Below are positions 35,073 through 63,427 of a stretch of 64,000 nt of DNA, in pieces. The DNA lies in the NCBI GenBank assembly GCA_016432285.1, contig CP066682.1, forward strand, positions 352,933 to 416,932. The letters run 5' to 3'. The notes beneath the pieces were generated by a model. The model saw nothing but the letters and a program-made list of their open reading frames with translations, made no database searches and was not told the origin of the DNA. Origin of the DNA: Candidatus Kaiserbacteria bacterium. GTDB taxonomy: Bacteria; Patescibacteriota; Minisyncoccia; Phycocordibacterales; UBA2100. A program made the position numbers and the translations under genes. Every line of letters begins with the position of its first letter. Position 1 is the first letter of the stretch.

Positions 35073-35305
35073 CCTCTTGGAAACCCACGGTTTTCCAACG
35101 CTCGCTTCGCGAGCTGTCTTCCTCCACGGGAAAACAATTGTTTTCCCGACCCCTTTCAAAGCCCAGAAGAGCCGTGCCTGCGCACGGCTCGTGTCGGATT
35201 TGCAAGCCGGAGCCATGTCGCCTTGGCGACAGGCGAGGCCGGGCAGGAGCCACTTAACGAGCGCAGCGAGTTTAGTGAGCTGTCGCCAAATCTGACTCTG
35301 GGCAC
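35055..35305 (+). mobile_element. ORF-less 213-bp composite insertion (module 1 + module 2) bracketed by a 19-bp direct repeat of the tRNA-Phe 3' end
   Basis: CAAATCTGACTCTGGGCAC occurs at 35055-35073 and 35287-35305. Hairpins lie at 35077-35098, 35100-35114, 35127-35148 and 35169-35190. The segment GTCGGATTTGCA (35193-35204) is complementary to tRNA-Phe 35053-35064. Confidence 0.7.
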
Positions 35306-61572: not shown

Positions 61573-62355
61573 TTATTGCTTGAGCCCGAGGCCGGTACGG
61601 ATCAGGTACCAGTTGATCACCGCGAGCGCAAGGATGAGCACGCCAAGCACACCGACCGAAACGGCAAGCGAGATGTCGGCGATACCGAGGAAGCCGTAGC
61701 GGAAACCGTTGATGAGGTAAAAGAGCGGATTGGCGTAGGTGATCGCCTGCCACCAGGCGGGGAGCGTGTGCACGGAATAAAAGATGCCGCCGAGGTAGAC
61801 CAGGGGAGTGAGGACGAAGGTGGGCACGAGGTTGATGCCGTCGATTGTCTTGGCGTAGACGCCATTGACCAATCCCGCGAGCGCGAAGACGAGCGAGGTG
61901 AGGATCGCGAAGGCAAGGATGATCAGCGCGTTGTGGATGGTGATCGAGAGCCCCGTGAAAAAGAGCGAGATCGTCATCACGAGCGCGCCCACCAAGACGC
62001 CGCGCACGACGCCGCCTGCGATGAAGCCCGCGATGATAAGCCACGGCGGCATGGGGGAGACGAGCATCTCGTCGATCGATCGCATGAAGAATTTCGACTG
62101 GAAGAAGGTGAACGAGGAATTGGCATACGCGCTCGTTACGATCGCGAGCATGACGAGCCCCGGCACCACGAACTGCATGTAGTCGAAGCCCTGCATATCT
62201 CCAATGCGGGAGCCAAGCACCGTCCCGAAGACCGTGAAGTAGAGGGCGGAAGTGATCACGCTCGGCAAAAAGGTCTGCACCCAGATGCGGAACATGCGCA
62301 CCACGTCCTTGCGGAGCATGGTGTAGAAGGCGATCCATTTTCTGCGGGCAGGCAT
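61573..62355 (-). CDS. ABC-2 type transporter permease
   Basis: 6 TM segments with an ABC-2 pattern. The ATG at 62355 (MPARRKWIAFYTML) is preferred over the GTG at 62364. Confidence 0.75.
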   Translation of the reverse strand: MPARRKWIAFYTMLRKDVVRMFRIWVQTFLPSVITSALYFTVFGTVLGSRIGDMQGFDYMQFVVPGLVMLAIVTSAYANSSFTFFQSKFFMRSIDEMLVSPMPPWLIIAGFIAGGVVRGVLVGALVMTISLFFTGLSITIHNALIILAFAILTSLVFALAGLVNGVYAKTIDGINLVPTFVLTPLVYLGGIFYSVHTLPAWWQAITYANPLFYLINGFRYGFLGIADISLAVSVGVLGVLILALAVINWYLIRTGLGLKQ

Positions 62356-62660
62356 ACCTGTCACACGAAATGACCTGATCGCAGGCCGGTAGTAAGTCGA
62401 CGTTTTAAAGCAGTTCTTGCACCAGCGGATTTCTTCAGCATTTGCTCCCGCCGCTCGGCATCGGCCTGCGATGAGTACGCCTCATAGTACAGGAGTTTGA
62501 ACGGTACCCGAGGTTTCGTTGACTTGTTTAGGCCGTCGTTATGTTCGGAAAAACGTCTGCGCAGGTCCGATGTATACCCGGCGTAGAGCTTTGTATCTTT
62601 TGAACTTTGCAAGATGTATACGTAGAACATAACTAGGTCATTTCGTGTGAACAGGCATAC
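62349..62660 (-). mobile_element. Miniature TIR element (294 bp between the repeats) carrying only a GIY-YIG ORF, with a 9-bp target-site duplication
   Basis: Direct repeat CAGGCATAC at 62349-62357 and 62652-62660. Perfect 16-bp terminal inverted repeats: TCACACGAAATGACCT (62361-62376) and AGGTCATTTCGTGTGA (62635-62650). Low GC. Confidence 0.8.
62361..62630 (-). CDS. GIY-YIG nuclease-domain protein (UPF0213/YhbQ-like, 89 aa)
   Basis: MFYVYILQSSKDTKLYAGYTSDLRRRFSEHN...FKLLYYEAY...A..RE..LK. Confidence 0.9.
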   Translation of the reverse strand: MFYVYILQSSKDTKLYAGYTSDLRRRFSEHNDGLNKSTKPRVPFKLLYYEAYSSQADAERREQMLKKSAGARTALKRRLTTGLRSGHFV

Positions 62661-63427
62661 TATTTTTCTTGCGTGAGCTTCAAAAAGACTTCCTCCAGCC
62701 GGCCGCCTCGATAGCCGTCTTTCGCGGCGCCCGTATCGTCGTGCATGGCGAGCACCTCCTGCATCGTGCCGTTGGCGACGATCTCGCCTTTGTTGATGAT
62801 CGCCACGCGCTTCGCGAGCTGCTCCGCTTCTTCGAGATAGTGCGTGGTGAGGAGGATGGTTACGCCTTCTCCGGTGAGCTTGCGGAGGTAGTCCCACATC
62901 CCGCGCCGCAGCTCCACGTCGACGCCCGCTGTCGGCTCGTCCAAGACGAGAAAGCGCGGCTTGTGTATCAACGCGCGGGCAATCATGAGGCGGCGCTTCA
63001 TGCCGCCCGAGAGCTGCATGCCGTTCTGCTCCATTTTCTCTCCGAGCCCGAGGTCGGTAAGGAGCTGCCTGGCGCGCGGAAGCGCCTCGCTGCGGGGGAG
63101 CCCATAGTAGCCGCCCTGGTTGACGACGATGTCGATGAGTTTCTCAAAGGGGTTGAAGTTGATTTCCTGCCCGACGAGGCCGATGAAGGTTTTGGCCACT
63201 TCGGGCTCTTTGTCGATCGAATGCCCGAAGACCTCCACCGTGCCGCTCGTTTTATTGACGAGGCCGGTCGCGATGCCGATGATCGTCGTTTTGCCCGCGC
63301 CGTTGGGGCCAAGCAGCGCAAAAAAGTCGCCCTGCGGAATGTCGAGCGAGACGCCTTTCAAGGCGACGGTCCCGCTCCGGTAGGTTTTCTTGAGGTCCTT
63401 GATCGAAAGTGCGTGCATGGGTTTCAA
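62660..63427 (-). CDS. ABC transporter ATP-binding protein
   Basis: Walker A GPNGAGKTT, signature LSGGMKRRL, Walker B FLVLDEPTAGVD. Confidence 0.93.
   Translation of the reverse strand: MKPMHALSIKDLKKTYRSGTVALKGVSLDIPQGDFFALLGPNGAGKTTIIGIATGLVNKTSGTVEVFGHSIDKEPEVAKTFIGLVGQEINFNPFEKLIDIVVNQGGYYGLPRSEALPRARQLLTDLGLGEKMEQNGMQLSGGMKRRLMIARALIHKPRFLVLDEPTAGVDVELRRGMWDYLRKLTGEGVTILLTTHYLEEAEQLAKRVAIINKGEIVANGTMQEVLAMHDDTGAAKDGYRGGRLEEVFLKLTQEK

Follow-up and report, generated by a model that had tools for sequence, protein, structure and literature searches.

The window analysed here is a 64-kb stretch of the Candidatus Kaiserbacteria contig CP066682.1, and the subject of this report is a 299-bp element within it, whose single gene encodes an 89-aa GIY-YIG nuclease and which lies between the ATPase and permease genes of an ABC transporter. 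Comparison with related sequences shows that the element was inserted at the ATPase-stop/permease-start junction. We consider it probable, with real room for doubt, that it represents a low-copy, self-contained selfish cassette made of a nuclease gene and a hairpin split around it; the insertion can be read from relatives that lack the element, and the chemistry of transposition is what we infer. The window copy is best explained as a single, old but intact cassette, with the nuclease gene located in the loop of a long hairpin, one half of which directly precedes its ATG and the other covers its final codons and stop.

Removal of 303 bp from the window rebuilds ...GAAAAATAG T ATG CCT GCC..., with GAAAAATAGTATGCCTGCCCGC as the empty junction sequence. 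The two closest permease orthologues (loci L093 and L094; 88% identity) share with the window the gene order HAD hydrolase, ATPase, permease, purB and purC, and in both of them the junction is uninterrupted, reading GGAAAAATAG T ATG CCC GCC in L094 and GACAAATAG T ATG GAT AAC in L093; the ATPase orthologues stop 1 nt short of the permease ATG. Because these syntenic relatives hold the uninterrupted order of stop, T and ATG, the 303 bp constitute an insertion. A sequence-only reading of this DNA, made before any comparison, had predicted that a deletion would restore such a coupled junction, and L094 and L093 provide the real empty sites. It had also described a low-GC interior, which was confirmed (GC fraction of 0.45–0.54 inside the element vs 0.57–0.66 in the flanks), as well as the coordinates of two repeats, which were correct on re-inspection. 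The 9-mer CAGGCATAC (plus strand) occurs at 62349-57 and 62652-60, with no third copy in 64 kb (2 copies vs 0.16 expected in shuffles; at least 2 in 1 of 100 shuffles), and a perfect inverted repeat of 16 bp pairs 62361-76 with 62635-50.

The same reading had taken the 9-mer for a 9-bp target-site duplication, and this did not survive comparison with other insertions. At the infB/rbfA junction, the filled site reads TGA T ATG/CCCC...GGGG/T ATG GGA (slashes mark the ends of the element), while the empty sites, with RbfA proteins 80–87% identical, read TAA T ATG AGT and TAA AT ATG TCC; TATG alone is duplicated in this pair, and CCCC is part of the element. In L128, the left junction, AAATAGTATGCCTGTT, is identical to that of the window, and the downstream gene begins with ATGGCC. 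The infB/rbfA pair and the L128 junction together rule out a 9-bp duplication. A sister clade supplies the third of the three loci, after the window junction and infB/rbfA, on which the filled/empty evidence is based: TATGA/CCCG...CGGG/TATGA in L087 is compared with the empty L022 and L024, which have an ATGA stop/start overlap, and the duplication of TATGA in L087 preserves both the upstream stop and the downstream start. Based on the three filled/empty comparisons and about 16 sister insertions, only (T)ATG is duplicated. CCTG is the left end of the element itself and pairs with CAGG at the opposite end; it is seen again beyond the right end because permease codons 2–3 (CCT G) match it by chance, L094 having CCC G, and the outer G of the 9-mer is found twice, once as the last base of the ATPase stop TAG and once as that of the terminal CAGG of the element. 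It is possible that the 9-nt match between left junction and target helped the integration by microhomology. The revised element spans 62357-62655 and is flanked on both sides by TATG, the duplication of which on insertion kept the ATPase stop as well as the permease start codon. The duplications of the window clade were read by eye; the automated duplication caller mishandles their internal loop.

The ATPase/permease junction carries a different insert of ~155 nt in L095-L097 (~1841-2000; e.g., L096:1835-2005), in which the permease is 85% identical. This insert contains no open reading frame (ORF), comes after TATG, and reads GTGA CCG TATG AAGAG...AAAACTAC ATG GAC, and it folds strongly (-64 kcal/mol for a 170-nt stretch). 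Unrelated small insertions may thus have hit this junction repeatedly.

A pattern scan with one genome per GTDB species returned 428 relatives, nearly all from metagenome-assembled genomes of the candidate phyla radiation (CPR)/Patescibacteria. The arms were surveyed in the best 80 of these 428 loci and in other fetched loci, yielding 65 non-redundant elements with flanking inverted repeats. Homologues with 65–79% identity are found at other junctions, between ftsK and the next gene (L001) and between infB and rbfA (L003-L012), and a further dozen are located at stop/start junctions in other Kaiserbacteria/Paceibacterota genomes and in metagenomes. Elements with the arms of the window copy occupy more than 16 other, unrelated junctions, whose sole common sequence is (T)ATG. 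The geometry at stop/start junctions is shared: the ORF follows the upstream stop at a distance of 29 nt and lies 5 nt from the downstream ATG. On the coding strand, the left half follows the pattern stop, N1-4, (T)ATG/CCNN NN CACACGAAATGACCT NGTT ATG...ORF, and the right half continues ORF...AGGTCATTTCGTGTGA NNGG/, after which T ATG leads into the next gene. In every case, the outer CCNN is complementary to NNGG (CCTG/CAGG, CCCC/GGGG, CCCG/CGGG).

The targets of the 65 elements fall into two recurrent classes, with 19 elements at the start codon of a co-oriented gene, 18 at the 5' end of a co-oriented tRNA gene and the remaining 28 elsewhere, several of these having the form TTGA/.../TTGACA, which resembles a -35 box. 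At tRNA targets, a single G separates the ORF stop from tRNA nucleotide 1, and a repeat of the first 6–10 (sometimes 11) nucleotides of the tRNA precedes the left arm, as in GGGCCCGTAG/CCCC-TCAC...GTGA-G/GGGCCCGTAG.... The repeat follows the invaded tRNA, be it Ala, Val, Ile or Ser. The duplication thus measures 3–5 nt at gene starts (TATG, TATGA), 6–11 nt at tRNA 5' ends and TTGA at some of the other sites. The duplication in every target class rebuilds what the insertion would otherwise destroy.

Several loci with tRNA targets contain additional features. Perfect palindromes without an ORF, having stems of 12–21 bp and ends of the CCCC...GGGG type, were detected at L067:3264-3304, L080:3290-3335, L086:3333-3378 and L085:3391-3433, directly at tRNA 5' ends and flanked by the duplicated tRNA 5' segment. 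They usually lie just 3' of a GIY-YIG ORF that itself has no flanking arms, and those of L080 and L086 differ from one another by compensatory changes. In L032:2961-2985 and in L044, which belong to the TCACCCAGAA clade, the upstream duplicate runs into the right end of the element itself (GGTGAGGGGCCAGTAG), and flank and left arm form a separate 10-bp hairpin, a hint that the same tRNA-Ala was invaded more than once or that the junction sequence itself has a role. In L057:408-500, a tRNA-like start, GGGCGTGTAGCTCAGTTGGTTAGAGCGCG, comes after the right arm and ARAGORN reports tRNA-Ile only from 498; the 5' part of this tRNA may be interrupted or duplicated.

The two arms were analysed as halves of one hairpin. 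The left arm is composed of an outer 4 bp, a small internal loop and a 16-nt core, and the stop codon TGA of the GIY-YIG ORF is the outermost triplet, i.e., the first 3 nt, of the other arm. Arm sequences vary by clade (e.g., CACACGAAATGACCT, ACACACTAAACGGCC, CCCCTCACTTGAAAAGGAT, CCCCCACACCTAATT, CCCAGCACCTTTGAAATCGAGT) and each remains paired with its own partner: the 20-nt left arms have a mean identity of 0.40 between elements, and the mean duplex energy is -39.7 kcal/mol for cognate arms, in comparison to -21.4 for non-cognate and -15.2 for shuffled ones. When 25 complete elements of two clades were aligned with MAFFT, 98.7% of the cells of the 15-pair core helix were paired, with changes on both sides in 7 of the 15 pairs; slid-partner controls for the whole 28-pair structure gave 31–45%, and no shuffle reached the observed covariation score. 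Some of the compensated changes replace C-terminal residues of the nuclease (GHFV to GRFV or SHFV), so at these positions pairing takes precedence over the amino acid. Elements of the window clade whose synonymous sites are saturated (synonymous divergence, dS, of 1.9–3.1) share an identical non-coding left core (15/15). On these alignments, the arms are constrained in pairing and, within a clade, in sequence. Such a combination matches a cognate protein-hairpin pair and not a family-wide, transposase-binding terminal inverted repeat (TIR). The transposase-type TIR was ruled out, the arms being clade-specific and co-varying and the right arm lying inside the ORF.

The GIY-YIG ORF proposed by the sequence-only reading, with its stop inside the arm, was confirmed by Pfam PF01541 (61 bits vs a gathering cut-off of 22.6, E 1.4e-16, residues 1–71). 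Across 45 homologues, the invariant columns are Y3, Y5, Y16, G18, R26, H30, E50, R61 and E62, which include the catalytic Y/Y/R/H/E. When the profile of these 45 homologues was searched against the PDB, the best matches were BH0048 (1zg2, 4.1e-13), EF2693 (1ywl, 6.3e-9) and SLX1 (1.2e-4), with I-TevI and UvrC being marginal (0.045–0.4); by these profile matches, the protein is placed among the prokaryotic Slx1-like minimal GIY-YIG domains. The best solved-structure matches belong to the UPF0213/Slx1-like standalone proteins (B. subtilis YazA, E. coli YhbQ, BH0048, EF2693). These represent the minimal GIY-YIG domain without the C-terminal Asn of the UvrC/I-TevI lineage (PMC1564403), which is likewise missing from the window protein. 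UPF0213 genes are single, conserved genes of a housekeeping type with no reported flanking inverted repeats or insertion polymorphism, unlike the CPR elements, and identity to YazA-type genes is ~40%. The ORFs are under strong purifying selection (ratio of nonsynonymous to synonymous divergence, dN/dS, of 0.04–0.14), and proteins of the CPR clade end in a conserved ...LRxGHFV tail, for which the hairpin arm is the coding sequence.

The family had been called uncharacterised, a description that is outdated, since close relatives, the Ssn proteins, are hairpin-directed nucleases acting on single-stranded DNA (ssDNA) (PMC11893778). Ssn proteins (94-aa single-domain GIY-YIG, cd10448) bind their cognate NTS/SRM hairpin only as ssDNA and cut beside it, do not act on double-stranded DNA (dsDNA) or RNA, and still cut a hairpin that is split across two oligonucleotides (Chenal et al., Nat Commun 2025; PMC11893778). 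The ssn genes are usually flanked by NTS, in an architecture called 'identical to' that of insertion sequences, and movement was not shown (PMC11893778). SsnA of Neisseria meningitidis (cd10448, GIY-YIG_unchar_3) and its relatives resemble the window protein in that they comprise ~90 aa and a single domain with no DNA-binding module; in both systems, the gene is flanked on both sides by sequences of the cognate hairpin, and nuclease and hairpin co-evolve. As a proxy for a direct comparison with Ssn, the window protein is 43% identical to an NTS-flanked homologue of Azospirillum lipoferum (pairwise E 2e-15; hhalign probability 98%). This homologue (L100; strain 4B, plasmid AZO_p3, 254918-256318) is a canonical gene of the Ssn type, preceded and followed by two inverted NTS copies each, giving four canonical copies (CGTCATCCCCGCGAAGGCGGGGATCCAG), and it sits between sufB and sufC, so the proteobacterial unit is likewise located between two genes of a conserved cluster.

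The layouts of the two systems differ. The CPR elements have a single hairpin divided by the gene, so that the loop holds the ORF and the right arm is coding sequence, in contrast to the complete hairpins on each side of canonical ssn genes; the co-evolving, hairpin-forming flanks of 20–50 nt known from Ssn are therefore present in a variant form, both flanks building one hairpin. Ssn repeats are dispersed in hundreds of copies, whereas the CPR element is single-copy in 64 kb, and the hosts are CPR/Patescibacteria here versus mainly Pseudomonadati for Ssn. Insertion seen by filled and empty sites, target duplication and target classes are documented for the CPR elements and not in the Ssn paper. 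By their sequences and layout, the CPR elements are treated here as a sister or variant of Ssn with a different cognate hairpin, and the comparisons above are the first filled/empty evidence for insertion among Ssn-type nuclease/hairpin systems. In the literature on GIY-YIG proteins, we found no account of such an element.

ATPase gene, GIY-YIG ORF and permease gene are all on the minus strand, with the element in operon orientation, and more than 100 permease orthologues are each 260 aa long. The element leaves no room for a promoter, so transcription would occur by read-through. A panhandle is predicted in the RNA and in the ssDNA of both strands (z -3.3 to -4.4), with a predicted two-end stem of 25 bp (minimum free energy, MFE, -113 kcal/mol; z -4.4). 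A mini-ORF begins at the original permease start codon and terminates 7 nt short of the nuclease ATG, and the nuclease stop comes 5 nt before the permease ATG; such an arrangement would act as a translational relay through the insert. MP[VLQ]HTK followed by a stop is found at the same spacing in most elements of the window clade. The nuclease start codon and the 3–5 nt before it pair with the conserved E-H-N codons ~90 nt downstream, a segment that is the best partner of the start-codon region within the ORF in 35/66 elements. This second hairpin shows compensatory changes at columns 37/141 and 38/140, including a codon change in L021 (AAC to AGC with GTT to GCT), and it is probably a translational brake on the nuclease. 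An Rfam scan gave two chance-level matches only. A group I intron or other known RNA was rejected, with no Rfam match and a 270-bp ORF that leaves no space in 299 bp.

Given these features, the life of the cassette could be pictured as follows. It entered directly after the T-ATG of the permease gene with duplication of TATG, the step that the empty sites document. Expression would depend on read-through and on a termination-reinitiation relay that leads from the ATPase stop to the mini-ORF, translated from the old ATG and melting the left arm, then to the nuclease ORF and, after 5 nt, to the permease ATG, while the panhandle and the hairpin burying the start codon would hold nuclease synthesis low. 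By analogy with Ssn, the nuclease would be directed to the stem that its own arms build in ssDNA, available at the replication fork or in incoming transforming DNA, and nick at the YATR/CCNN flank. GIY-YIG enzymes are hydrolytic, and consequently host repair or replication has to supply the joining and the short duplication, perhaps with the aid of microhomology. The bias in sites would then arise because, in compact genomes, an insertion survives only where it restores a start codon, the 5' end of a tRNA or a promoter. It is a more tentative proposal, and one that we would not yet bet on, that these elements form an unrecognised class of autonomous prokaryotic transposable element, in which the sole protein is a hydrolytic, hairpin-directed ssDNA nuclease (GIY-YIG, Ssn/Slx1-like) and the ends are the halves of its recognition hairpin. 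With similar reserve, such a class might be characterised by targeting of start codons and tRNA 5' ends, by a short regenerating duplication and by an operon kept working through a translational relay.

Several observations weigh against the account of a mobile nuclease-hairpin cassette. A hydrolytic nuclease alone is unable to paste DNA. Recent movement was looked for and none was seen: there is one copy in the 64-kb window, copies inside one genome are just 75–77% identical, and identical proteins (P0011, P0037, P0055) are each confined to one locus. The variable length of the duplication argues against one fixed staggered cut; it fits a repair- or microhomology-mediated integration followed by selection in very compact genomes. 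The Ssn motif HGTCWYN(0-2)YYVSBRHN(0-5)WNVSBRGN(0-2)RNCYNB, a pattern that recovers 4 sites around the Azospirillum gene, matches neither the window, where 0.65 hits are expected from shuffles, nor any of 85 related loci. Folding is slightly better for the sense than for the antisense strand (G.U pairs 135 vs 80; Wilcoxon p 0.0045, from non-independent samples), and the start-codon hairpin is a further sign of RNA-level selection; the arms might therefore have their function in the transcript rather than in the DNA. In addition, uncompensated A.C mismatches stand in the sense strand of three elements, which are also counter-examples to the sense-strand bias.

The RNA-level signals also speak for an explanation that we regard as rather unlikely, i.e., that the gene is a free-standing homing gene, whose product cuts empty dsDNA junctions and which is copied by double-strand-break repair, occasionally to an ectopic site via microhomology. 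The inverted repeat would then act in the transcript only, as an RNA panhandle that insulates the operon, as a limit on the translation of a toxic nuclease, or as an RNase III site like those of rRNA intervening sequences. The better folding of the sense strand with its additional G.U pairs and the start-codon-sequestering hairpin with its compensatory changes are in line with such a gene, as are the presence/absence differences between close relatives, observed at three loci, and the 9-nt microhomology between the left junction of the element and the target in the window. Insertion between genes in operon orientation resembles, as a matter of general knowledge, the phage seg/mob genes. Phage free-standing GIY-YIG homing genes (T4 seg, I-TevI relatives) also share with the CPR elements the catalytic domain, the intergenic insertion with presence/absence variation, and RNA hairpins over the translation start that restrain expression. 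They differ in encoding enzymes of 200–250 aa with DNA-binding domains, in having one cognate site with long flanking homology, and in lacking terminal inverted repeats and target duplications. The window protein, an 89-aa single domain, carries no module for binding a long double-stranded target, and instead of a single long target, elements with the same arms are found at more than 16 unrelated junctions sharing only (T)ATG. Furthermore, both ends and duplications persist in the ORF-less palindromes, the non-coding arm is unvarying in its sequence as well as in its pairing, and the closest characterised relatives cut neither dsDNA nor RNA (PMC11893778). The intervening sequences of rRNA genes (23S_rRNA_IVP type, removed by RNase III) resemble the element in their end-to-end stem, the ORF in the loop and their tolerance inside a transcription unit; the CPR element differs in residing in an mRNA operon or tRNA leader. 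In CPR rRNA genes, GIY-YIG ORFs occur within non-intron insertions (PMC11270868), and these, if of the same type, would need removal at the RNA level, a point in favour of the homing gene.

A resident or domesticated host gene is a still less probable explanation. It would encode an Ssn-type ssDNA nuclease for the control of transformation or for repair, ancient and immobile, with the half-sites being regulatory or self-targeting. Strong purifying selection, the low copy number with no recent duplicates, the syntenic placement of some elements upstream of tRNA-Ala(TGC) across genomes and the precedent of Ssn with a host function in Neisseria (PMC11893778) are all in keeping with it, but the gene is absent from close relatives at three different loci, its sister elements occur at many loci and always with a regenerated start codon or tRNA end, and there are no extra target hairpins in the 64-kb window. 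Finally, the sequence-only reading had offered a non-autonomous shell of the miniature inverted-repeat transposable element (MITE) type, which captured the GIY-YIG gene and is moved in trans by a DDE-type transposase via the 16-bp TIRs with a 9-bp duplication. It was suggested by the terminal inverted repeat of the window copy, perfect over 16 bp, and by the 9-mer repeated in its flanks. We rejected it, since it is contradicted on its defining points, the duplication and the arms, and we regard it as very improbable indeed. The 9-mer is TATG plus chance identity, the duplication varies in length between target classes, and the arms are a clade-specific stem that co-varies with the enclosed gene, the right one belonging to the ORF, so that neither a family-wide conserved TIR nor a duplication of fixed length was found. 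Capture in trans is also unlikely because no ORF-less hairpin with the window-clade arms (loop ≤30 nt) was found in 241 million metagenome records and no second copy exists in the window, where tblastn and blastn detected neither another GIY-YIG gene of this kind nor another whole element, and a search for the 16-bp arm allowing up to 3 mismatches gave no further copy (2 matches vs 0.32 expected). The other alternative raised at that time, that small GIY-YIG genes travel as their own minimal mobile unit, is the one favoured by the data, within the reach of sequence comparison.

A self-mobilising nuclease-hairpin cassette would have parallels in the IS200/IS605 and REP/RAYT (HUH Y1) systems. 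Like these, the CPR elements are small, have hairpin-defined ends and possess ORF-less palindromic derivatives, and a short base pairing between end and flank is plausible (here CCNN with NNGG); recognition as ssDNA is established for IS200/IS605 and REP/RAYT. The differences concern the enzyme, an HUH/Y1 TnpA in IS200/IS605 and a hydrolytic GIY-YIG protein with no covalent intermediate as the only ORF here, as well as the ends, since IS200/IS605 elements generate no target duplication and have separate subterminal hairpins, while the CPR element has a duplication and one stem joining both ends.

There are thousands of small standalone GIY-YIG genes, of which one branch (Ssn) was assigned a function only in 2025. 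CPR bacteria have tiny genomes and few classical transposons. In these genomes, the hairpin-gene-hairpin layout has been caught as an insertion, with empty sites, defined ends, target duplication, two recurrent target classes and ORF-less derivatives. Should the nuclease indeed mobilise its own hairpin, bacterial transposition would gain a new chemistry, a fifth besides those of the DDE, HUH, serine and tyrosine enzymes, and the elements would be a source of very small, sequence-programmable ssDNA nucleases; the NTS/Ssn systems could also have arisen from a new class of this kind. If the nuclease has no such role, the element is still a clean natural example of a selfish gene that is harmless inside a translationally coupled operon or tRNA leader. 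It may also account for the GIY-YIG insertions of non-intron type that have been reported from CPR rRNA genes.

Table 1. Features of the ATPase/permease junction and the inserted element, in window coordinates
Feature	Position	Strand	Basis or remark
ABC transporter ATPase gene, 255 aa	62660..63427	-	ORF list; Pfam ABC_tran 2.9e-29; stop TAG at 62660-62662
Upstream TATG copy, original permease start codon, now opening the mini-ORF	62656..62659	-	filled/empty comparisons, sister elements
Mini-ORF ATG CCT GTT CAC ACG AAA TGA (MPVHTK, stop), 6 codons	62638..62658	-	spans left arm
Left arm of split hairpin, CCTG-T-TCACACGAAATGACCT on coding strand	62635..62655	-	repeat search, covariation
GIY-YIG nuclease ORF, 89 aa, single domain, Slx1/UPF0213/Ssn-like	62361..62630	-	Pfam 1.4e-16
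Start-codon region GTTATGTTC of GIY-YIG ORF, paired with 62538-62546	62625..62633	-	inverted repeat, MFE fold, covariation
Internal segment GAACATAAC (codons E-H-N), partner of start-codon region	62538..62546	-	inverted repeat, MFE fold, covariation
Right arm of split hairpin, AGGTCATTTCGTGTGA-CAGG	62357..62376	-	encodes terminal residues GHFV and TGA stop
Downstream TATG copy; ATG at 62355-62353 is the permease start in use	62353..62356	-	orthologue lengths, filled/empty comparisons
ABC-2 type permease gene, 260 aa	61573..62355	-	Pfam ABC2_membrane 1.2e-35

Two further observations were made outside the cassette. In L003-L012 (e.g., L003:4736-5407), an ORF of 223 aa with a faint match to LAGLIDADG_3 lies just downstream of rbfA, beside the GIY-YIG insertion, and it may be a second selfish nuclease gene. 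A recurring palindrome, CGGGAAAAC-NNNN-GTTTTCCCG, is present at window positions 30522-30543 and 35127-35148 and at L003:5810-5831; both window copies are followed by ACCCCTTTC, and the palindrome is possibly an operator or another small repeat.

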